A program made the position numbers and the translations under genes. Source: an uncultured Candidatus Saccharibacteria bacterium (GTDB taxonomy: Bacteria > Patescibacteriota > Minisyncoccia > JAHISW01 > Tagabacteraceae). From it: DNA of 37,341 nt. The stretch is from NCBI GenBank assembly GCA_964590835.1, contig CAZPYD010000004.1, positions 6,913 to 44,253 on the forward strand, given 5' to 3'. Positions 15,296-36,198 of the stretch are shown piece after piece (the first letter of the stretch is position 1; every line of letters starts with the position of its first letter). The notes under the pieces were generated by a model. That model was not told where the DNA came from. It searched no databases and saw only the letters and a program-made list of their open reading frames with translations.

Positions 15296-15296
15296 A

Positions 15297-15705
15297 TTTC
15301 CCCAAACCACCACAAACCCCCTTTTCTCTCTTTGCATCCAAGAATAGAAAATTATAGTCATTCCACTTAACGAAAAATTCATATCTCGCCATGCGAGGCT
15401 CACACAGGATGAATTTTTCTATTCCACTCCTTAATTCCTGCCTGCCGGCAGGCAGGTTCTAATTCTTTCCGCAGAGTTCGAAAATAGAGTTGTGGAGGTT
15501 TGGGTTCCGGGAAGCCCCGTACCAAACAAAATCACAAAAACATTTTACACCAAGCAATTCCATTTCATTGTCAGGTATCAACACTTCTGAGTAGTATAAC
15601 TCCTCACGTTTTGATGAAAACACAGTCATACGGTCTGTTTTTGGATTTTAGTTTGGGGAGGGGTTTAGGCTAGTGAGAAAAAAGGGAGTTGTTGGTGGTT
15701 TGGAG
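15297..15705. other. GC-enriched non-coding element of ~400 nt closed by a ~30-bp inverted repeat (MITE-like element or structured RNA)
   Basis: CCCCAAACCACCACAAACCCCCTTTTCTCTC (15300-15330) pairs with GAGAAAAAAGGGAGTTGTTGGTGGTTTGGAG (15675-15705). Nested hairpins include the perfect 20-nt palindrome CCTGCCTGCCGGCAGGCAGG (15437-15456). No credible ORF. Confidence 0.55.
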
Positions 15706-15759
15706 AAGGGTTGATTTGTTTTGTTACTTAATTATTTTCTTTTGGGTTATAATTAGAGT

Positions 15760-16719: not shown

Positions 16720-16736
16720 AATACAGAAATAAATAA

Positions 16737-16770
16737 AACAAGAACACCTACTAAAGGTGTTCTTGTTTTA
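16737..16770. terminator. Strong, probably bidirectional, terminator hairpin after ddl
   Basis: Perfect 13-bp stem AACAAGAACACCT / AGGTGTTCTTGTT with loop ACTAA, flanked by an A tract and a T tract. Confidence 0.8.
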
Positions 16771-16940
16771 TTTGTGGATTAGACAGGACTCGGTCACAAG
16801 TCCTCAAAAAATATACTTCGTTATTTTTTGGGCTTGCCGACCCCGCCTCCTTCGCTTCACTCAGTCCGGCTTTCTCGTCCTGTCGGCAATCTATCGAGCA
16901 AAACAAAAACACCCATTTAAGGGTGTTCCTGTTTTCCTCG

Positions 16941-17014
16941 TGGACCCGACAGGACTCGAACCTGCCACCTCTGGAATGCAAAACCAGTGCTCTAGCCAGA
17001 TGAGCTACGGGCCC
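16941..17014 (-). tRNA. tRNA-Ala (anticodon UGC)
   Basis: The reverse complement folds as GGGCCCG...CGGGTCC with the G3:U70 alanine identity pair. Anticodon loop TTTGCAT, T arm GCAGG-TTCGAGT-CCTGT. Confidence 0.9.
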
Positions 17015-23897: not shown

Positions 23898-24034
23898 ATA
23901 AAAATATTAATCCAAATAGAGATTTAAGTTTTATTTAAACCTTTTGGGATTATTAAAGAGATAAAGACATAGCCATATAATTTTATTATAAACAATTAAA
24001 TGGAAACAAATGTTTCTTGTCTCTAATAAGTATA

Positions 24035-25060
24035 ATGAATAATATAAGTTTTAACCCAAATTTAATAACAAAGAAAATGCTTAACACCTTGGATGAAAGA
24101 CCAAGGGCAGTTTTGGTTTATCGTTTTGGTTTAGACTCTTCTAAGCCAAGAACATTAGAGTCTATTGGTAGAGAGTATGGTGTTACAAGGGAAAGAGTTA
24201 GACAGATTGAAGCTTTTGCTTTAAATAAAATTCGTCAATCAGATGAGTTTTTGAATACAGAAGATGTTTTTACTGAAATTAAAGATGTTATAGATTCTAA
24301 AGGTGGAATCGTGAATGAAGAAGACTTTTTAGAAAACAAGGTTAAAACCAAAGATCAAAGATCACATCTGTTGTTTTTGCTTGTTTTAAGTGACTTATTT
24401 CAAAAAATGAAGGAGGATACCTCTTTTCATTGTTCATGGGTGACTGATACAGAAAAAGCTCAAAAAACAAAACAAGCTGTAGAATTATTGCATAAAGAAA
24501 TAAATCGCGATAATTTATTTTCAAAGAAAGAAGTTTTGTCTATTTTGTCTGGTCATTTAGAAAAAATTACTCAAGAAAAAATAAAAGGAGATGTGTTGAG
24601 TTCTTTACTTAAAATTTCTAGCGTAGTTAAGCCTAATGAGTTGGGGGAATGGGGTGTTGCTTCTTCTCCTTATGTAAATCCTAGAGGTATGCGTGATTAT
24701 GCATTTTTGGTAATGAGAAGACATGGTTCTCCTATGCATTTTACAGAAACAGCAAGCGCCATAAAAGAACTTTTCAACAGAAAAGCTCACATGCAAACAG
24801 TTCACAACGAGTTAATAAAAGATAATCGTTTCGTTTTGGTTGGACGTGGTTTGTATGCTTTGAAAGATTGGGGCTACGAAGGTGGGGTAGTAAGAAATGT
24901 TATTGAAAAGATATTGACTCAGAATAATTATTTACCTAAAGAAGAAATTATTAAAAGAGTTTTGAAAGAGAGATATATAAAAGAAAATACTATCTTAGTA
25001 AATTTGCAAAACAAAAAATATTTCAAAAGAGATAATCAGGGTCGTTATACCCTTGTGTAA
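24035..25060 (+). CDS. Sigma-70 region-4 HTH protein with a C-terminal HARE-HTH (RNAP delta-subunit-like) domain
   Basis: N-terminus [49 protein letters not shown] matches sigma region 4. C-terminus [28 protein letters not shown]...[19 protein letters not shown] matches the HARE-HTH pattern. I prefer the ATG at 24035 over the TTG at 24017. Confidence 0.7.
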
Positions 25061-25111
25061 AACTATAGAATTTAATTTTTCTTTTTTCTAAAAAAACGCT
25101 AAAATAAAATA

Positions 25112-26272
25112 GTGGAGTTAATTTCATATATCTTAAATGATCCGCTTATTCAAGGAGTTTTTATGTGGGCTAGTCGCCTATGGTTTTTGTGGTTGCCTTT
25201 GTTTTTGGGGTTTGCTTTTGTAAACCTTTGGTCAACCCAAAAAAAACTATCTTTTTTTAGAGATATGGAATGGGTTCTTTTGGAGATTAAAATTCCAAAG
25301 GAAATTTTTAAAAGCCCTAAGGCAATAGAGGCAATTTTAAATTCTATTTATTCGCCTTCTTCAGATGGTCCTTGGTATAAAGGTAATCTAGCATCTTGGT
25401 ATAGCTTAGAGATTGTTGGTATAAATGGTGGTATTCATTTTTTTATACGCACCCCTAAGGGTTCTCGTAATTTTATAGAATCTTTGATTTATGCTCAGTA
25501 CCCAAGCGCTGAGGTTGTTGAGGCTGTTGATTATGTATATGCTTCTAATTTTGAAGATTTAGATGAGTGGAGCTTGTGGGGGACTGAATTTGGTTTAGTG
25601 AAAGAGGACGCTTATCCTATAAAAACTTATGTTGATTTTGGACTTGAGGGAGGAAAAGAAGAGCAAAAAATAGATCCAATAGTTTCTTTTTTGGAGTTTT
25701 TGGGTTCTTTAAAGCGTGGTGAGCAGGTTTGGTTTCAGATAATGATAAGAGGTACTGGTAATGATTGGGTAAAGGAAGGTAAAGAGGTTGTTGAGAAGCT
25801 ACTGGGAAGAGACAAGCCCCCTGAAGAAGCAAAACAACTTTCAAAAAGAGAAAAGGAGGTGGCCGCTGCTGTTGAAAAAAGTTTTATTAAGTATGGTTTT
25901 CAGACAGGAGTTAGAACTATTTATATTGCTCAAAGAGATATTTTTAATAAGGCAAACGTTGGGGCTATAATGGGTTCTATGAATCAATACAATACGGTGG
26001 ATCTGAATGGTTTTAAGTCAATTTGGAAATTGGACCCTGCGCCTTTTAAATTTTTTATGAAAGATAAAAGAGAGGCTGTAAGAAAAGAAATAATCTTAGA
26101 TGCTTATCGTAAACGATGTTATTTTTCTATTCCTCATCACAGAAAGCCTTTTATTTTAAATACTGAGGAATTGGCTACTATTTATCACTATCCAGGTACT
26201 GTTGCCGAAACTCCAACTTTTGAAAGAATTGGTGCAAAGAAGGGTGAGCCGCCTTCAACTTTACCTATTTAA
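25112..26272 (+). CDS. Membrane-anchored protein of unknown family, upstream partner of the TraD-like ATPase
   Basis: GTG start at 25112 (alternative ATG at 25163). Hydrophobic N-terminal segment WASRLWFLWLPLFLGFAFVNLW, then LLEIKIPKEIFKSPKAIEAILNSIY... and a C-terminal LNTEELATIYHYPG block. It ends 13 nt before the next gene. Confidence 0.65.
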   Translation: MELISYILNDPLIQGVFMWASRLWFLWLPLFLGFAFVNLWSTQKKLSFFRDMEWVLLEIKIPKEIFKSPKAIEAILNSIYSPSSDGPWYKGNLASWYSLEIVGINGGIHFFIRTPKGSRNFIESLIYAQYPSAEVVEAVDYVYASNFEDLDEWSLWGTEFGLVKEDAYPIKTYVDFGLEGGKEEQKIDPIVSFLEFLGSLKRGEQVWFQIMIRGTGNDWVKEGKEVVEKLLGRDKPPEEAKQLSKREKEVAAAVEKSFIKYGFQTGVRTIYIAQRDIFNKANVGAIMGSMNQYNTVDLNGFKSIWKLDPAPFKFFMKDKREAVRKEIILDAYRKRCYFSIPHHRKPFILNTEELATIYHYPGTVAETPTFERIGAKKGEPPSTLPI

Positions 26273-26285
26273 TATCAATAAAATA

Positions 26286-28154
26286 ATGGACAAAAATAGA
26301 ATAACATATTTTGCCAAAACAAATTTTAGAAACGAACAGACCAAGTTTGGTATTAAGAAAAAAGATAGAACTAGACATACATATATCATTGGTAAGACTG
26401 GTACTGGAAAGACAACATTGCAAGAAAATATGGCAATTCAAGATATTCGTAATGGAGAAGGGGTTGCTGTTATAGACCCCCATGGTTCTTTTGTTGAAAA
26501 AATGCTTGATTATGTTCCAGAGGAGCGCATAAAAGATGTAATATATCTTGACCCGTCGGACATGGATCATCCGATTGCTTTAAATATCATGGAAGATGTA
26601 GACGGTGATCAAATGCATTTGGTTGCCTCCGGTCTTATGGGTGTGTTTAAAAAAATGTGGCCGGATGTTTGGTCTGCAAGGATGGAATATATTTTGAATA
26701 ATACTTTGTTGGCTCTTTTGGAGTATCCAAATTCTACCCTTTTGGGAGTAAATAGAATGTATACAGATAAAGATTATAGAAAGGCGGTGGTAGATAATGT
26801 AAAGGATCCGATTGTAAAAGATTATTGGGCAAGGGAGTATGCAGGCTATACAGAGAGGTTTGCTGCAGAAGCTACTCCGGCCATTCAAAATAAAATTGGT
26901 CAATTTACTTCTAATCCACTTGTAAGGAATATTATAGGTCAGCCTAAATCCAGTTTTAGTTTTAGGACTGCAATGGATGAACAGAAGATTGTTTTAATAA
27001 ACTTATCTAAGGGACGAATCGGGGAATTAAATTCTAGCTTGCTTGGTGCTCTTTTGGTTACAAAAATTTATTTGGCTTCTATGAGTAGAGCTAAAGAGCC
27101 TGGAAAAGAGTTTCCTGATTTTTATTTTTATGTTGATGAGTTTCAAAACTTTGCTGCGGAATCTTTTGAAAATATTTTATCAGAATCACGAAAATATGGT
27201 CTTGCGCTTGTTTTGGCCCACCAATATATTACTCAGATGCCAGACGGTGTGAAGGATGCTGTTTTTGGTAATGTGGGTACGCACATAGTTTTTAGAGTTG
27301 GTCCGGAAGATGCCAGGGTGCTGGAGGTAGAGTTTGCCCCAGAGTTTACTGCTGACGATGTTGTTAATCTTGGTTTTACCAATATTTACTTAAAGCTTCT
27401 TGTGGATGGGGAGCCATCTAGGCCCTTTTCTGCTACCACACTTCCACCACTTAAAAAAAATGTAGAATCTTTTAAGCAGCAAATAATAGATTATTCTAGA
27501 GAAAAATATTGTACACCAATAGAAGATATTGAAAAACAAATAATGGAATGGCATGCGCCAGTTAAAAAAAAAGACGGTAAAAAGGGTGAGCCAGAAAAAG
27601 AACAAAAAGAAGCGCCTAAGTTGTTTGAAGCCGCTTGTTCAGTTTGTGGTAAAAAAACAGTGGTACCTTTTGAGCCAATAGAAGGCAAGCCTATTTATTG
27701 TAAGAAGCACAGAGCTTATATTACAGAGGGTGGAGGTTCTTCTACTGAAACACCAACTAAACCTAAGTCAAAAGAAACTGTTAAAAAATCCGAACCTAAA
27801 AGAGAGTTTCTTAATATGCCGACTTCATCGACTACTCGCCTCGATTCGGCGAAGCGGGCCGGCAGGCAGGCGAGCAAGCCCAGCCGCAACCTACGGATGC
27901 AGGCGGGTAAAGAAGAGGTTTCTTTGAGTCAGTTAGGTGGTGGTACAAAAGAATTTAAAAAAGAACCATTTAAGAAAAGAGAAAAATCAACTCCGGATTT
28001 TAAGGGTTTAAGAGAATTACTTGCAGATGTAGCGCCTAAAAAGACACCTGGCGAAGAAACAAAGCAATCATTAAAAGAAACAGTAAAACCCAAGCAAGAT
28101 TTTGAACCAGGCAGTGAAAAAACTCTAAAACCTGGCGACACAATAAAGTTTTAG
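26286..28154 (+). CDS. VirD4/TraD/TraG-like (FtsK/HerA superfamily) P-loop ATPase without TM helices, with a C-terminal CxxC-x17-CxxH zinc ribbon and a K/E/P-rich tail
   Basis: Walker A IIGKTGTGKTT, Walker B FYFYVDEFQNF, and the LVLAHQYITQM...FGNVGTHIVFRVGPEDA block. Zinc ribbon CSVCGKKTVVPFEPIEGKPIYCKKH at 27636-27710. I prefer the ATG at 26286 over the 26202 start in the track, which overlaps the upstream gene. Confidence 0.8.
   Translation: MDKNRITYFAKTNFRNEQTKFGIKKKDRTRHTYIIGKTGTGKTTLQENMAIQDIRNGEGVAVIDPHGSFVEKMLDYVPEERIKDVIYLDPSDMDHPIALNIMEDVDGDQMHLVASGLMGVFKKMWPDVWSARMEYILNNTLLALLEYPNSTLLGVNRMYTDKDYRKAVVDNVKDPIVKDYWAREYAGYTERFAAEATPAIQNKIGQFTSNPLVRNIIGQPKSSFSFRTAMDEQKIVLINLSKGRIGELNSSLLGALLVTKIYLASMSRAKEPGKEFPDFYFYVDEFQNFAAESFENILSESRKYGLALVLAHQYITQMPDGVKDAVFGNVGTHIVFRVGPEDARVLEVEFAPEFTADDVVNLGFTNIYLKLLVDGEPSRPFSATTLPPLKKNVESFKQQIIDYSREKYCTPIEDIEKQIMEWHAPVKKKDGKKGEPEKEQKEAPKLFEAACSVCGKKTVVPFEPIEGKPIYCKKHRAYITEGGGSSTETPTKPKSKETVKKSEPKREFLNMPTSSTTRLDSAKRAGRQASKPSRNLRMQAGKEEVSLSQLGGGTKEFKKEPFKKREKSTPDFKGLRELLADVAPKKTPGEETKQSLKETVKPKQDFEPGSEKTLKPGDTIKF
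27818..27907. repeat. GC-rich element embedded in frame in the ATPase tail
   Basis: GCCGACTTCATCGACTACTCGCCTCGATTCGGCGAAGCGGGCCGGCAGGCAGGCGAGCAAGCCCAGCCGCAACCTACGGATGCAGGCGGGT stands out against AT-rich flanks. It shares the 13-mer GCCGGCAGGCAGG with 15444-15456. Confidence 0.55.
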
Positions 28155-28287
28155 AGCCTATTCATAATTTTATGTTGAAATAAAATTTTAATGTTTTTGT
28201 TTTTTGCAGCCAAAAACTGGAAATTTTAGCCAACAAGCAAGAATTTATTCTTTTTTTACTTTTGCGATAAGATTTTGAATAGGCTCT
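28153..28287. repeat. Copy 1 of a ~135-bp structured repeat with pairing ends. It contains a remnant of a glycosyltransferase 3' end.
   Basis: AGAGCCTATTCA (28153-28164) pairs with TGAATAGGCTCT (28276-28287). On the minus strand, 28245-28286 reads EPIQNLIAKVKKE*, a paralog of the true C-terminus of the 29985-31184 gene. Confidence 0.75.
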
Positions 28288-28328
28288 AAAAATTGACCTT
28301 AAATGATTACTTTGATAGCCTAATTGTA

Positions 28329-29840
28329 ATGAAGCAATTAGGTTATTTTTTATTTTTATTTTTGTTTCCACTTGTTGTTAGTGGGCAAGTTTATATTTCA
28401 GAAATAATGTATGACGTGGAAGGAGCGGATAGTGGGCGTGAGTGGATAGAGGTTTTTAATAGTGGTAGCGTGAGTGTGGATTTGGGTGGATGGAAAATTT
28501 TTGAAAACGATACTAATCATAAAATAAATCTCTTTGACGAAGAGGGAAGTTTTGTTATTTCGTCTGGCGGCTATGCTGTGGTTGCTGATAATCCAACGAA
28601 GTTTTTAGAAGATTGGCCTGGTTTTTCAGGTCTTATTTTTGATAGCGCTTTTTCACTTAAAAATAGCGGAGAGGAAATAATATTAAGAGACGATGAATTA
28701 AATGATGTAGACAGTATCTTTTATGATGTTGAGCTGGGTGCCGAAGACGGCAAATCTCTTCAAAAAATAAACAATTTGTGGGAGGTCGGATCTCCCACAC
28801 CGGGAGAAGAAAACAAAAAAGAGTATGAGTCTATCGAAGAAGGGGGTGGTAACGAGAGTGCTGGTGATGAAATTTCGATTGACTCTAAATATATTCAGCC
28901 AGAAGATTTGCCTCAAATTAAGGCTTATGCAGGCAAAGATAAAACAGCGATAGCTGGGGCTATGACTGGTTTTGAAGGTGAAGCTTACGGTTTAAAGGAT
29001 GAGTTGCTTGATAATGCAAGATATTTGTGGAACCTGGGTAATGGCGCATTAAAAGACGGAAAGAATGTTGTTCATTTTTATAAATATCCAGGAGAGTATA
29101 GAGTGGTGTTGGATGTGTCTTCGGGGGGTTATTCTGTTTCTGATATTTTGATTTTAAAAGTAGTCCCTAATGAGATTTTTATTTCGGAGATTAAGACAGG
29201 AGTTGATTCTTTTTTGGAGCTTAGAAACCCATCTAGTCAGGAAATTGACATTTCTGGGTGGAGGTTTGTTTCAGGTAATCAAAAATTTACTTTTTCAAAA
29301 AATAGTTTTATAAGGCCTTATAGCTATTTGGTGATTCCATCTTATTCTTCGGGGATAATTTTTGATTCGGGAAAAGGGAAGGTAGATTTTCTTTATTCTA
29401 GTGGTTTGTTGGCGGATTCTTTTGTGTATGGCGGGAATCTTTTGAAAGATCAGAGTTTTTCTCGGAACGGCGATAATATAGGTATTACTAAAGAAACACC
29501 GGGAAGTAAAAATGAAAAATTAATTCAAAAACAAACAAATGTTCGAAACCTGTCTGCCGGTAGACAAGGTTCAACTTTGAACATTTCTAGGGAAGTAGAA
29601 ACTAGTGAAGTTAGTTCCAACTATCGAGGTCCAACCTCGATAGTTGGAGAAGGAGAGGATAAAGAGGAAAAGGTGCTTAAAGAAGATGCGGGTTTAAATC
29701 AAAACCAACAAGCAAACATTGTTACTGTTGGTGGTGGCGATGGTATAAATAAGAAGTATTATTATCTTGGAGTCTTGGTTTTAATTGTTTTTGCGGGTGT
29801 TGGAATTTATGTTATACGTCGCAAGAGTAGAGTTTGGTAG
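28329..29840 (+). CDS. Surface protein: signal peptide, lamin-tail domain (LTD), PKD-like domain, second LTD, linker, C-terminal TM anchor
   Basis: MKQLGYFLFLFLFPLVVSG signal. LTD pattern YISEIMYDVEGADSGREWIEVFNSGSVSVDLGGWKI. PKD-like pattern WNLGNG...VVHFYKYPGEYRVVLDV. Second LTD IFISEIKTGVDSFLELRNPSSQEIDISGWRF. C-terminal YYYLGVLVLIVFAGVGIYVIRRKSR. I prefer the ATG at 28329 over the TTG at 28293. Confidence 0.8.
   Translation: MKQLGYFLFLFLFPLVVSGQVYISEIMYDVEGADSGREWIEVFNSGSVSVDLGGWKIFENDTNHKINLFDEEGSFVISSGGYAVVADNPTKFLEDWPGFSGLIFDSAFSLKNSGEEIILRDDELNDVDSIFYDVELGAEDGKSLQKINNLWEVGSPTPGEENKKEYESIEEGGGNESAGDEISIDSKYIQPEDLPQIKAYAGKDKTAIAGAMTGFEGEAYGLKDELLDNARYLWNLGNGALKDGKNVVHFYKYPGEYRVVLDVSSGGYSVSDILILKVVPNEIFISEIKTGVDSFLELRNPSSQEIDISGWRFVSGNQKFTFSKNSFIRPYSYLVIPSYSSGIIFDSGKGKVDFLYSSGLLADSFVYGGNLLKDQSFSRNGDNIGITKETPGSKNEKLIQKQTNVRNLSAGRQGSTLNISREVETSEVSSNYRGPTSIVGEGEDKEEKVLKEDAGLNQNQQANIVTVGGGDGINKKYYYLGVLVLIVFAGVGIYVIRRKSRVW
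29538..29647. repeat. Two palindromic elements inside the LTD gene linker
   Basis: An imperfect ~50-nt palindrome at 29538-29587 is centred on TGTCTGCCGGTAGACA. A perfect 14-bp stem CCAACTATCGAGGT-CCA-ACCTCGATAGTTGG lies at 29617-29647. Confidence 0.7.
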
Positions 29841-30025
29841 TCTACTCAAAATCTTATGTTGAGATAAAATTTTCATGTTTTTGTGCGAAAAAGACAAAAG
29901 CCTAGGAAATAATATCTAGATATATTGATAAGGCTTTTGGTTTTTGCAGTCAAAAACTGGAAATTTTAGCCAGCAAGCGAGAATCTATTCTTTTTTTACT
30001 TGTGCGATAAGATTTTGGGTAGACT
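29839..30025. repeat. Copy 2 of the structured repeat, with an extra ~56-bp hairpin insert. It overlaps the real 3' end of the glycosyltransferase gene.
   Basis: AGTCTACTCAAAATCTTAT (29839-29857) pairs with ATAAGATTTTGGGTAGACT (30007-30025). The extra segment at about 29884-29940 carries AAAAGCCT...AGGCTTTT. Confidence 0.75.
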
Positions 30026-31184
30026 CCAGCATTTTCTCAAAACTGAATTCTCTATAAATTTTTTCCCAAAGAGAGGTGGCTAAGTTGTTTTTTAGTTCAG
30101 TTTCTTTTATAAGTTTTTCTATGGCTTCTGTTATCTGTTGTGGGTTAGCAGGTTTTACAAGCAGACCAGTTGAGATTACTCTAGAGTTTTCTGAGATGTT
30201 TTCTATGATTTCAGATACACCTCCGACGTTTGTTGCTATAACAGGTAGTCTTGCTAATCCAGCTTCAAGTAAAACGTAAGGCAGACCTTCTTTAACAGAA
30301 GGTAAAACAAAAATATCAAAGGCTTTTAAGTAATTTGCTTCGTTACCCTGGCTATCAATCAAAAAGACGTTGTTTTCTAATTTTAGGTCTTTTATTTGTT
30401 TTTCTAGTTTTTCTTTTCCTTCACCAAAACCAATTATAAAAACATGTAACATGTAACCTGAAGCATGTAACATTTTAACTGCGTCAATTAAATATTTGTG
30501 GCCTTTGTTTTTTGTAAATTCACCGATTGTTCCGACCCAGATTTGATCACCCGTGTCTGATAGCTGAGAGCTGTTTACTGATAACTTTTCTCTCGCTTTT
30601 TCTCTAGATAAAAATGTGTAGTCTTCGGATTTAATTCCATTTTGAATAGTTATGAGTTTATTTTTTGGGGCAATATTATTTTTAAGTGCGATTTGTTTGT
30701 CATATTCTGATACGCAGATTATTTTGTCGTAAAACAGGCAAGTAAATTTACTAAATATTTTTATAAGTTTTGTCTGTATTTTAGAGCGAGGTTCACTAAA
30801 AGCCCAACCATGAGCAGTGAATATAGTTACTGGTGATTTGAAGATTTTATAAGCCCAAATAGCAGCTCCGGCAATACCACCAGCCTTAGAACTAGAAACA
30901 TGTACCACGTTTGGTTTAGTTTTAAAAAGTAAGGCAAGAATTTCAAAAAAAGCGGATAAATCTTTGAAAAAAGAAACATCACGTTGAAAGCTTTCTATTT
31001 CATGATAGGTTATATTTTTTTGTTTTATTTTTTGTGCCAAAACACCTTGTCCACCTGCTGCAACGTGCACGTCAAATTTATCACTAGACAAGCTAGTGGC
31101 TAAGTCGTAAGTATATTTTCCCGCACCTGCCCAAACAGATTTAGTTATTACGTAAAGTGTTGTTATTTTGCTTGATTTTTCCAT
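29985..31184 (-). CDS. GT4-family (GT-B fold) glycosyltransferase
   Basis: 399 aa with the E-x7-E region PSVKEGLPYVLLEAGLARLPVIATNVGGVSEII. Confidence 0.88.
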   Translation of the reverse strand: MEKSSKITTLYVITKSVWAGAGKYTYDLATSLSSDKFDVHVAAGGQGVLAQKIKQKNITYHEIESFQRDVSFFKDLSAFFEILALLFKTKPNVVHVSSSKAGGIAGAAIWAYKIFKSPVTIFTAHGWAFSEPRSKIQTKLIKIFSKFTCLFYDKIICVSEYDKQIALKNNIAPKNKLITIQNGIKSEDYTFLSREKAREKLSVNSSQLSDTGDQIWVGTIGEFTKNKGHKYLIDAVKMLHASGYMLHVFIIGFGEGKEKLEKQIKDLKLENNVFLIDSQGNEANYLKAFDIFVLPSVKEGLPYVLLEAGLARLPVIATNVGGVSEIIENISENSRVISTGLLVKPANPQQITEAIEKLIKETELKNNLATSLWEKIYREFSFEKMLESTQNLIAQVKKE

Positions 31185-31217: not shown

Positions 31218-32090
31218 ATGAATAAAGTCAATTCAAAGACAATTTTAGTGACTGGCGGAGCCGGTTTTATCGGTTCTCATTTGTGTGAGAGGTTTGTTTG
31301 TGATGGCCATAAGGTAATTTCTTTGGATAATTATTTTACTGGTTCAAAAGAGAATCACGTAGAGGGTGTTGAGTATCGAGAGGGTCACACAAAAGATATA
31401 GAAAAGTATATTTTTGAGAATTAGGATATTATTTATCATCTTGGTGAGTATTCTCGTGTTGCAGCTAGTTTAGAAGAGCCGGAATTGGTTTGGGATTTGA
31501 ATATGGCGGGTACACTTGCTGTTTTGGAATTTTGGCGAAAGCAAAAATGTAAGCTTGTTTACGCTGGTTCTTCTACAAAGTCTGTTGGGCCGCGCGATGA
31601 CGGTGTAAGTGGGCGTGATTTGGCTCCCTATACTTGGGCAAAGGCGATAAATAGTGAATTAGTAGTAAACTATAGCAAGTGGTATGACTTAACATACGCT
31701 ATTACTTATTTTTATAATGTGTATGGCTCCAGAGAAAGGAGTGATAAGTACGGCACACTAATAGAAATTTTTAAACAAAATTATTTAAACAACAGACCAC
31801 ACAAAGTGCGTGGGCCAGGAACTCAAACAAGAACCTTTACACATATTGATGATACTATTGATGGAATTGTTCTTGTGGGAGAAAAAGGGGAAGGAGATAA
31901 TTTTGGCATTAGCGCAAAAGAATCCTATTCTTTACTTGATGTGGCTGAAATGTATGGAGGAGAAGTAGAAATACTTCCCCCAACTAAAACAACTAGACCA
32001 AAGTCAGTAGTAAATACCACTAAAATAGAAGCCCTCGGCTGGAAGCAAAAAAGAAAACTAGAGGATTATATTGAGGAGGCAAAAAATTAA
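31218..32090 (+). pseudogene. NAD-dependent sugar epimerase/dehydratase (extended SDR) interrupted by one in-frame TAG
   Basis: [10 protein letters not shown] Rossmann motif and YTWAK (YxxxK). The track ORFs 31218-31424 and 31485-32090 are in the same frame, and 31425-31484 is open (DIIYHLGEYSRVAASLEEPE). The only interruption is TAG at 31422-31424. Confidence 0.8.
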
Positions 32091-32095
32091 AAAAT

Positions 32096-32129
32096 AAAAA
32101 CCCAAAGGACGATTGCCCTCTGGGTTTTT
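32096..32129. terminator. Bidirectional terminator between convergent genes
   Basis: AAAAACCCAAAGG-ACGATTG-CCCTCTGGGTTTTT. Confidence 0.7.
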
Positions 32130-32145
32130 GATTTTTCTTTTTAGA

Positions 32146-32598
32146 TTACTTTTTAGAAAGTAATCTAAAAAGAAAATTATCTTGAGCTCCATCAAGTGGA
32201 ATCTCAAAAGATTTTACCTTATTCCGTTTCATAAATTCGGAAACTTTGTCCATATCTAGGCACGACGTCATCTCATCCAATTTGTCGCATTCCTCATTGA
32301 CAAAATAGTCAGCATCCATGGCGCTTATCTTTTTGGGGTCCCAAGGTTCTACCCTTTCAAGGCCTTTGCTTGAAAAAATGTACCCCTTATGGTTCACCCA
32401 TATAGGAGGACATTCTTTTTGTTCAACTCCGTTTTTGAATAAGATAATTTTCTCTATATCAGTGACTTTTACATAGTCACGAATATCGTTGAAAGATATT
32501 TTAAATCCTTCTTCGCTATCAAACATTGTCATTCCTGTGGATTCTCCAGGTTTACCGGAACCCGAATTTAAAAAAATAGATATCTTGTATTCGTTCAT
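32146..32598 (-). CDS. Hypothetical 150-aa soluble protein
   Basis: I prefer the ATG at 32598 (MNEYKISIF...), which has AGGAG 9 nt upstream, over the longer start in the track. I recognise no motif. Confidence 0.55.
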   Translation of the reverse strand: MNEYKISIFLNSGSGKPGESTGMTMFDSEEGFKISFNDIRDYVKVTDIEKIILFKNGVEQKECPPIWVNHKGYIFSSKGLERVEPWDPKKISAMDADYFVNEECDKLDEMTSCLDMDKVSEFMKRNKVKSFEIPLDGAQDNFLFRLLSKK

Positions 32599-35127: not shown

Positions 35128-36198
35128 TTTTTGTTGTCGGATTTTTTCTTCCTCGCTACGTAGTGAGTTCCTTATTTTTATATAATTATTTACTTCTTCT
35201 TTGGATACTTGTTTTTGAGCAAGTGTTGCTTCTAGAACTTTTGTCCAAAAATCAATTCTTGCTTCTGTGAGAAGTTTGATGTTATCAGATGTTTTATCGA
35301 GAAGTTTTGTATAATACCAGATTATTTCTCCTAGTCTATATATTCTCATTAGCCACAGAGATTGGCGCTCTTCCTTTGTTCTATTTTTTTGAAGATAAGA
35401 AACCAATGCGTTTTCCAGTGGCCTATTGTAGAGTGTCATAAAGTTAAGAAACCTTGCCCATCCTTCATGCTTGTTTCCAAACCTAAAAGAAGATGTGTCT
35501 AACAGATAAACATCTCCATTTTTTATAATAATTTTTTAAGGCACAATGACCAATTGAGAAAGAAATTTGAAGTATAGATTAATTGTATCTGCATTTTTTT
35601 CTAGTTTGTTTTGTGCTTCAGACAGTAATCGTTTTATTTTTGAGTCTTTGATTTTTAGTAGAATATTTTTTTGATTGTTTTTAAAAGACTTAATATAATC
35701 TTTTGCGTTCATTTGGCCAAAATATTTTTTGATTGTTTTGGAATGTTCAGATGTTGTTGCGTGGACCCCTTCTTGGATTTCAAAAATTTTAAGAGCAAGG
35801 AAGAATTGTTCACGAAGAGAGTGTTCTAAAAATTTTTTATCTTGTTCAATAAAAGAGGTTACTAAAATCAGATAACCATTTTTTTGAGTAAATAATATTT
35901 CTTTGGGAAAATTGAAAACATGGTATGCGAATTTTATTTCTTCTAGAATATTTTTCGATGCTCTTTCTTTTCTTATTTCTTTTATACCGGAAGGATGACT
36001 ACTTACTTTGATAATAACTTTATCGTTTGTTTTTTTATTTCTGCCCAAAAGGACTAGTTTTTTGCCACCAATCAAATATCTTTCACCTAATACATGAATT
36101 TGACTTTCTTCCAATGAAAAGCCCAGATCATTTAAAATTGACGAGGTTTTTTCCATTTCTTTTGCTATTTGTTTTTTCCAGTCTTCTGTTTTGTTCAT
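35119..36198 (-). pseudogene. Protein-kinase-fold (APH/phosphotransferase-like) gene interrupted by one in-frame TAA
   Basis: The track ORFs 35536-36198 and 35119-35439 share a frame. The stretch between them is open and reads KIIIKNGDVYLLDTSSFRFGNKHEGWARFLNF, which fits an APH-like Mg-binding region. The single stop is TAA at 35536-35538. The N-lobe pattern is GERYLIGGKKLVLLGR...KVIIKV. Confidence 0.6.

Follow-up and report, generated by a model that had tools for sequence, protein, structure and literature searches.

The stretch analysed here, referred to as the window, comprises 37,341 nucleotides (nt) of contig CAZPYD010000004.1 from an uncultured Candidatus Saccharibacteria bacterium (GenBank assembly GCA_964590835.1), with a genome of Patescibacteria/Parcubacteria type. 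It contains three neighbouring genes, coding for a coupling ATPase, an LTD-PKD-LTD protein (hereafter LTD) and a glycosyltransferase (GT), with LTD and GT convergent. Two copies of a palindromic, non-coding element lie at the ends of these genes (Table 1). Copy 1 sits on the TAG stop codon of the ATPase, before the LTD promoter, and copy 2 separates the stop codons of LTD and GT. We find that LTD is an old gene inherited vertically at this place, that the element is the newcomer, and that insertion of copy 2 gave both LTD and GT new ends. We hold this part of the account, including the placement of copy 1 on the ATPase stop, with high confidence.

Table 1 Features of the ATPase, LTD and GT locus, with positions counted from the first letter of the window.
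Feature	Position	Strand	Remarks
TrwB/VirD4-like coupling ATPase, C-terminal zinc finger	26286–28154	+	Copy 1 begins with the native stop codon of this gene
Copy 1, short form, 137 bp	28152–28288	+	Delimited by alignment, profile, covariance model and folding
Copy 1 left arm, TAGAGCCTATTCATAATTTTAT	28152–28173	+	
Copy 1 right arm, ATAAGATTTTGAATAGGCTCTA	28267–28288	+	Minus strand reads LEPIQNL...
LTD promoter-like site, TTGACC-N17-(TG)nTAGCCT	28293–28321	+	7 nt before the ATG (28329); read by eye, not listed by a simple promoter scan
LTD-PKD-LTD protein, secreted, membrane-anchored	28329–29840	+	Orthologue in L007 is 69% identical
Antisense relic of the ancestral GT C-terminus, NSTLATYNINSNTRKNN	29781–29835	–	Within the LTD 3' coding region
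Copy 2, long form, 192 bp (64 codons)	29836–30027	+	Boundaries uncertain by ~2 nt
Copy 2 left arm	29836–29857	+	Source of the present LTD stop TAG, 29838–29840
Apex module, copy 2 only, 56 bp	29885–29940	+	A-tract, stem AAAAGCCT/AGGCTTTT around the palindrome ATATCTAGATAT, T-tract
Small hairpin GAGAATCTATTCTT followed by T7	29979–29999	+	Overlaps the GT stop codon; copy 1 equivalent at 28239–28259
GT4 glycosyltransferase (GT)	29985–31184	–	Last 12–13 codons encoded by copy 2
Copy 2 right arm	30007–30028	+	Minus strand codes for GT residues (L)ESTQNL

Alignment of the two copies with MAFFT (28150–28292 against 29834–30030) requires only one gap, of 56 columns. The copies are 89% identical over 131 shared core columns, and the 14 differences consist of 11 transitions and three transversions. 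A profile built from both copies recovers them with nhmmer at E values of 4e-63 and 4e-36, and a covariance model of both at 1.5e-59 and 2.9e-39. Each copy is bounded by inverted arms of 20–22 nt, whose consensus GAGYCTAYYCAAAATCTTAT has four matches in the window, compared to 0.03 expected by chance; these matches are the four arms themselves. Homology does not extend past the arms in either direction, so that the repeat constitutes a discrete palindromic unit rather than a duplicated segment of arbitrary extent. Both copies have the same orientation and are 1.7 kb apart. An earlier note on this DNA, made by eye, had described a structured direct repeat of ~135 bp with 85–90% identity, an extra insert of ~56 bp with its own hairpin in copy 2, and pairing between the two ends of each copy. 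The formal alignment bears out all three, placing the true ends of the element ~1–3 nt further out and extending the paired arms beyond what had been noted. Three independent assemblies (ENA ERZ23499057, JGI 3300009374 and JGI 3300009405) are 99.8–100% identical to the window. Copy 2 is unchanged in all three and both copies are unchanged in the ENA scaffold (L001), which rules out an assembly artefact.

When folded, each copy forms one long hairpin with a z-score of –5.6 to –7.9 relative to shuffled sequence, as expected from the structured hairpin that had been proposed. The folding energies on the plus and minus strands are –42.9 and –36.2 kcal/mol for copy 1, and –70.0 and –54.5 kcal/mol for copy 2. 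Inside the arms a second stem is formed by TAAAATTTT..GTTTTTG and CAAAAAC..GAAATTTTA. A right-hand segment of 40 nt is unpaired overall and contains the small hairpin followed by T7. The apex hairpin of copy 2 (–18.8 kcal/mol) has a 9-bp stem and a 27-nt loop. The succession of A-tract, stem and T-tract is present on both strands, and the apex looks, from this arrangement of letters, terminator-like in both directions. Copy 1 has the sequence TTTTTGC without its partner GCGAAAAA, and the simplest view of the short form is that it arose by deletion from the long form.

The closest relative in the databases is the locus L007 (GCA_974502465.1), in which the order ATPase, LTD and convergent GT is the same. 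Its ATPase is 81% identical, and LTD and GT are 69% and 70% identical over their full lengths, up to the boundaries of the element. No closer relative was found in the protein database, where the best matches of ATPase and GT are 81% and 70% identical, respectively. The gene order is also kept in L030, with an ATPase that is 59% identical. In L026 and L031 LTD and GT are still convergent neighbours, with other genes between ATPase and LTD; these are a radical SAM gene in L026 and a glycine-reductase-like gene and others in L031. Profile, covariance-model and locus searches show that the element is absent from both junctions in L007, L026, L030 and L031. Since these relatives keep LTD without the element, the gene was here ancestrally and the repeats arrived later. 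The idea that LTD had been inserted or shuffled between two hairpins as a single-gene cassette is thus contradicted, and so is the expectation that ATPase and GT would be directly convergent in relatives without LTD: all four have the LTD orthologue at the same place, next to GT. There is no integrase or recombinase domain in the neighbouring genes. We also considered the repeats as att sites of an integrated island or as part of a cassette, which is ruled out by the synteny and by the lack of a recombinase nearby. Upstream, the block coding for a sigma-70 region 4/HARE-HTH protein, a DUF8128 protein and the TrwB-like zinc-finger ATPase (24017–28154) is kept in L007, L010, L026, L030 and L031.

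The relatives also reveal what the junction of LTD and GT looked like before copy 2 arrived. The 3' ends of the two genes overlap by 63 nt in L007, 8 nt in L026 and 42 nt in L030. The 119 GT homologues end in ...FSFEKMLxxT[LI]xxY..., with both T (+7) and Y (+11) conserved in 118 of the 119. In the window, GT ends in ...EKMLESTQNLIAQVKKE (C-termini are given here up to the stop codon), with I at +11 in place of Y. This present GT end is identical to the minus strand of copy 2, LESTQNLIAQVKKE, and the minus strand of copy 1 reads LEPIQNLIAKVKKE. The missing GT motif is found 192 nt away, antisense to the 3' end of LTD, as NSTLATYNINSNTRKNN, and the corresponding tail in L007 is TDTLVAYNINASPSKNDQS. 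Removal of 29836–30027 in silico (192 nt, 64 codons) lets LTD end in ...KSRV, with its TAG exactly at the position of the TAA in L007. By the same removal GT becomes ...EKMLNSTLATYNINSNTRKNN, with the C-terminus ...EKMLNSTLATYN..., which fits the family motif. The excised sequence is colinear with L007 and has no gap at the junction. Because the excision restores both the LTD stop and the GT family motif, the element is the source of the tail QNLIAQVKKE, which is no remnant of the ancestral GT. The antisense relic is partly preserved as coding DNA of LTD, and the argument is made by frame, position and family motif together.

Copy 2 was thus inserted at the TA of the LTD stop codon, within the ancestral overlap of the convergent LTD and GT genes. 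The insertion separated the two genes, added one codon (W) and a new stop to LTD, and swapped the conserved GT end (TLxxY...) for the element-encoded tail. Comparison of the last 14 codons in the two copies shows five base differences, four of which change amino acids, and three altered residues. The earlier note was right that copy 2 carries the last 13 codons of the GT gene as it now stands, and wrong in taking them for the original ones, as they are element sequence that replaces the conserved end. Its view of copy 1 as the decayed end of a GT paralogue fails for the same reason: the tail common to both copies has replaced the conserved GT end, the relic of which survives antisense in the 3' end of LTD.

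At the other site, the ATPase has kept its native last codons (..DTIKF), which L007 shares exactly and L010 nearly so. The TAG of this gene is where copy 1 starts, and the other end of the copy is 4 bp before the –35 box of LTD. The LTD promoter-like site is conserved in L007 and L026. From the predicted promoter, the LTD mRNA would be leaderless or nearly so, and the TTG at 28293, which appears as a start codon in the list of open reading frames, is the –35 box of LTD. The slot filled by copy 1 contains an unrelated hairpin of ~27 base pairs (–29.4 kcal/mol) in L007 and two other hairpins in L010. At the LTD/GT junction of L031 (15638–15690) there is a perfect 19-bp palindrome, TAGTCTAGACTATAG..CTATAGTCTAGACTA, the arms of which contain both stop codons (TAG...CTA), and other gene ends in the window have perfect hairpins of 19–20 bp (16731–16773 and 32133–32176). 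Since L007, L010, L031 and other gene ends of the window carry such unrelated structures, long palindromic hairpins are usual at the gene ends of this clade, without homology from one relative to the next. Perfect, AT-rich and of considerable length, these palindromes have A and T tracts on their flanks, as in L031 (15638–15690), L007 (11799–11860) and the window (32095–32176).

Pairing within the element is conserved between the copies to an extent that we regard as suggestive. The 22-column outer stem contains two pairs with both partners exchanged, T:A replacing C:G at 28157/28283 and C:G replacing T:A at 28161/28279, and one further pair that is now U.G. These are the two double changes and the wobble pair that had been noticed by eye. 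A third double change, A:T to G:C, lies at the boundary of the outer stem, and two columns are broken in one copy. RNAalifold gives 43 pairs common to both copies. All eight differences within these pairs keep pairing on the plus strand, four of them as double changes and four through G.U, a count that is biased towards pairing because the structure is derived from the same two sequences. The four G.U pairs correspond to A.C mismatches on the minus strand. Compared to random mutants of copy 1, copy 2 folds far better (P = 0.0003). Copy 1 has no such advantage over mutants made from copy 2 without its apex by 14 random substitutions (P = 0.48). From this asymmetry, copy 2 seems to have stayed near the original palindrome and copy 1 to have decayed. 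Correction of quasi-palindromes at the DNA level would yield the same pattern of pairing as selection.

The search for further copies that the earlier note had proposed gave none in 44 kb of the genome, the loci of relatives or exact-word scans of GTDB, JGI and IMG/VR. Profile and covariance-model searches of the window together with its 7-kb upstream extension (L029; 44 kb together) return the two known copies only, and a covariance-model search of 226 kb of relatives' and control loci returns none. An exact 20-mer scan of one genome per GTDB species gives three chance matches and does not return the window's own copies. A 20-mer match in a Jorgensenbacteria metagenome-assembled genome was set aside, as it lies within coding sequence and has no flanking similarity. 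An exact 19-mer scan of JGI metagenomes gives 15 chance matches, none of them with extended similarity, and again misses the window's own copies. Two scans of IMG/VR and blastn of phage genomes show no further copy. Among the genes of the window and the extension no transposase domain was found by Pfam domains. Rfam 15 at the gathering score identifies only three tRNAs in the whole window, and a relaxed search of 28000–30200 gives only sub-threshold matches to eukaryotic microRNA precursors and other unrelated families, that is, generic hairpins.

How did one unit come to lie at two neighbouring gene ends? With only 1.7 kb between two copies of like orientation, and neither a further copy nor a transposase seen, we favour a local copy by template switching. 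One gene-end hairpin would have been copied into the other site by a local, microhomology-guided event, for example through template switching during replication over a distance of 1.7 kb on the same strand. We regard a dedicated transposase as less likely. Both copies lie on the TA of a stop codon after AGTT(T), and their native left flanks, AAGTTTTAG and GAGTTTAG, resemble each other. Flanks this similar have a background frequency of 0.007, which rises to 0.055 when only stop-codon contexts are counted; once conditioned on the stop codon the likeness is weakly above background, and we do not use it as proof of microhomology. The native 10-mer GTAGAGTTTA, to the left of the insertion point of copy 2, matches the right end of the element, GTAGACTCCA, at 7 of 10 positions (background 0.002). 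Set against movement by a transposase in trans, local copying has about an even chance.

Transcribed on the plus strand, the element would form a long 3'-end hairpin on the ATPase and LTD messages. Such a hairpin would serve as a gene-end structure, either a terminator or a 3'-end protector, and the apex module at the convergent LTD/GT junction would be a two-way barrier. Judged from position and predicted fold, this role is possible, and we propose it tentatively. Of the long bidirectional terminator or hairpin suggested earlier, the role is plausible, given that relatives have unrelated hairpins in the same slots; the terminator proper fits less well, there being no U-tract after the outer stem and no hit in a consensus scan. 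Taken as a whole, the reading of a lineage-specific, palindromic, non-coding element with the insertion history given above, local copying and a role as gene-end hairpin is, in our estimate, a balanced proposition. Several points weigh against it. Covariation is weak with two copies alone, and the chance of at least two compensatory pairs, given the observed numbers of changes, is P 0.017–0.095 depending on the transition bias. Together with the energy test, in which copy 1 is no better than its random mutants, this makes the earlier claim that pairing of the ends is under selection no more than suggestive for the two sequences. The outer stem has no downstream U-tract, the consensus terminator scan reports nothing inside the element, and copy 1 has no terminator-like apex. 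As for local copying, the microhomology statistics are modest and were noticed post hoc, and either of the two sites could have been the donor. A dispersed family is possible because the collections evidently do not include this contig and the searched part of the source genome is 44 kb.

A serious alternative, which we consider somewhat unlikely, is that the element has no function. A palindromic insertion, neutral or selfish, would then be tolerated at gene ends as a relic, and its pairs would be conserved by chance or by quasi-palindrome correction. Copy 1 does look neutrally decayed, having lost the apex and acquired one mismatch besides its result in the energy test. The insertion removed a nearly invariant GT motif, and the peptide in both copies shows no sign of purifying selection, as four of five base differences are nonsynonymous. 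Against this stand the eight of eight stem differences that keep plus-strand pairing, two of them compensatory, and the presence of the element in exactly the slots where relatives have their terminator hairpins. The constancy of copy 2 across three assemblies, and of both copies in one, also speaks against a relic.

The main rival to local copying is a miniature inverted-repeat transposable element (MITE) moved in trans. The copies would then belong to a dispersed family and represent independent or local-hop insertions made by a TA-targeting transposase of IS630/Tc1-mariner type encoded elsewhere. The element is a discrete unit with inverted arms of 20–22 nt, the orthologous sites in relatives are empty, and excision in silico restores both reading frames. 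MITE families typically comprise long and internally deleted forms, and the divergence of 11% seen here is usual for them as well. TA stands on both sides of copy 1, and the target reconstructed for copy 2 also has TA where the insertion took place; this dinucleotide is common by chance in AT-rich DNA. Copy 2, on the other hand, is flanked by TG/CA and not by TA/TA. There is no third copy in the 44 kb of genome or in the collections scanned and no transposase gene in the window or its extension, and two copies in the same orientation 1.7 kb apart are unlikely under random transposition. The junctions do not separate the two mechanisms, as the product of a template switch is identical to that of a TA-duplicating transposition, TA-[GAG...CTC]-TA. 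We consider the MITE unlikely on balance. The preference of the earlier note for a hairpin rather than transposase-recognised terminal inverted repeats is nevertheless too strict, as the arms behave as boundaries of a discrete unit and an origin as terminal inverted repeats stays in play. An element of IS200/IS605 type was considered for the conserved 5' flank and the lack of target duplication. The ends of such elements are separate subterminal hairpins, in contrast to the true inverted repeats of one long hairpin seen here, and we set this candidate aside.

It is improbable that the element is a mobile gene end, by which we mean a self-propagating palindrome, TAG...CTA, with the TA in stop codons (AGTT(T)TAG) as its target, carrying a stop for either strand and a two-way terminator. 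If true, this would explain why long, near-perfect gene-end palindromes are non-homologous between close relatives in the candidate phyla radiation (CPR). Still less probable is a role that has nothing to do with termination at gene ends, be it as a small RNA acting in trans, as a cis-regulatory RNA or as a recombination site bound by a protein. The strong structure on both strands and a weak promoter-like site inside copy 1, facing leftward, agree with it. There is no match to an Rfam family, the element is not conserved in any relative examined, no recombinase lies nearby and one copy has lost 56 bp of structure. Finally, the model of selected terminator hairpins that bracket an inserted LTD cassette, with copy 1 as a decayed GT end, is scarcely tenable: direct repeats do flank LTD and the open frame of copy 1 does resemble the GT tail, but LTD is syntenic and orthologous in four relatives without repeats, the common tail is not the ancestral GT end, and there is no recombinase gene nearby.

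Small palindromic intergenic repeats or MITEs are known from other bacteria as Correia elements in Neisseria, ERIC/IRU in enterobacteria and RUP in Streptococcus pneumoniae. Like these, the element described here is 100–200 bp long, non-coding and AT-rich, with inverted arms of 20–26 nt and one long hairpin. It lies in presumably transcribed regions at gene ends, where such elements can alter the C-termini of their neighbours, and a TA target is plausible. Full-length forms and forms with an internal deletion of ~50 bp are a feature shared with Correia and ERIC. The element differs from all three in having only two known copies, adjacent to each other, with a target duplication that is not intact at copy 2. 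It also differs in that no partner transposase is known and that it has no known similarity to any described family and no match in Rfam. The host is a CPR bacterium, and a narrow full-text literature search on the CPR group gave nothing related. On this comparison the element is probably best filed as lineage-specific and resembling the small palindromic repeats of other bacteria, with membership of a MITE family unproven.

The element also has features of bidirectional intrinsic terminators. It is found after stop codons and, in copy 2, between convergent genes, with an apex that has A-tract, stem and T-tract on both strands. L031, L007, L010 and other junctions in the window hold long perfect hairpins in equivalent slots. 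In contrast to intrinsic terminators it is far larger (137–192 nt) with a branched interior, its outer stem is not followed by a U-tract, and the apex is lost in copy 1. Compensatory evolution of terminator stems has been described (PMC5381666). A bioRxiv preprint of 2026 treats repetitive extragenic palindromic (REP) sequences and bacterial interspersed mosaic elements (BIMEs) as stem-loops in 3' untranslated regions (10.64898/2026.03.23.713779). The likeness to REP/BIME sequences is that of repeated extragenic palindromes at the 3' ends of genes, with a proposed role in mRNA 3'-end stability or termination. Unlike the element, REPs are ~35 nt long, highly repeated throughout the genome and linked to RAYT transposases, and none of these three properties is seen here.

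Other observations concern the rest of the window. The gene for a NAD-dependent epimerase (31218–32090) is split by a TAG at 31422–31424, where L001 and L002 have TTG at 31423 and an intact protein of 290 residues; the TAG is a nonsense polymorphism or a sequencing error. At 35527–35584 there are 13 substitutions in 58 nt relative to the otherwise near-identical L001 and L002, and the window has A or T at all 13 positions. L001 has a 13-nt deletion in this region, and two open reading frames of 106 and 220 residues in the window correspond to one gene of 359 residues in L002. Hypermutation or recombination of this patch, or an artefact of the consensus, could account for the cluster, and no reverse transcriptase gene is in view. 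The 415 nt at 15296–15710 have no coding potential, are bounded by G+C-richer inverted repeats of 33 nt (15298–15330/15675–15707) and fold with a z-score of –5.8. They have no match in Rfam and no counterpart in L007, which has a DUF3201 gene there. Either an unknown RNA or another element with inverted-repeat ends, unrelated to the first, may be present here. The 3' end of tRNA-Ala and ~20 nt beyond are partly duplicated 166 nt away (16752–16792 and 16918–16958, 80% identical, within the regions 16731–16792 and 16918–17014). The duplicate adjoins the perfect 19-bp hairpin at 16731–16773, and an old integration at the tRNA could have left this scar. The contig of L001 ends at the last base of the window (37341) and that of L002 40 nt further on, which suggests a repeat or a coverage break just past the end of the window.

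In all, the locus presents a tidy and fairly ordinary case of the evolution of small repeats and reveals no new kind of system. A small palindromic insertion into overlapping 3' ends uncoupled two convergent genes and gave both of them new C-termini. The glycosyltransferase lost a nearly invariant motif, and the old coding sequence can still be read on the opposite strand. Annotation based on duplicated gene ends can therefore mislead, as an apparent gene remnant here is element sequence. For the organism and its relatives, the locus hints at a quick turnover of gene-end hairpins in the reduced genomes of CPR bacteria.

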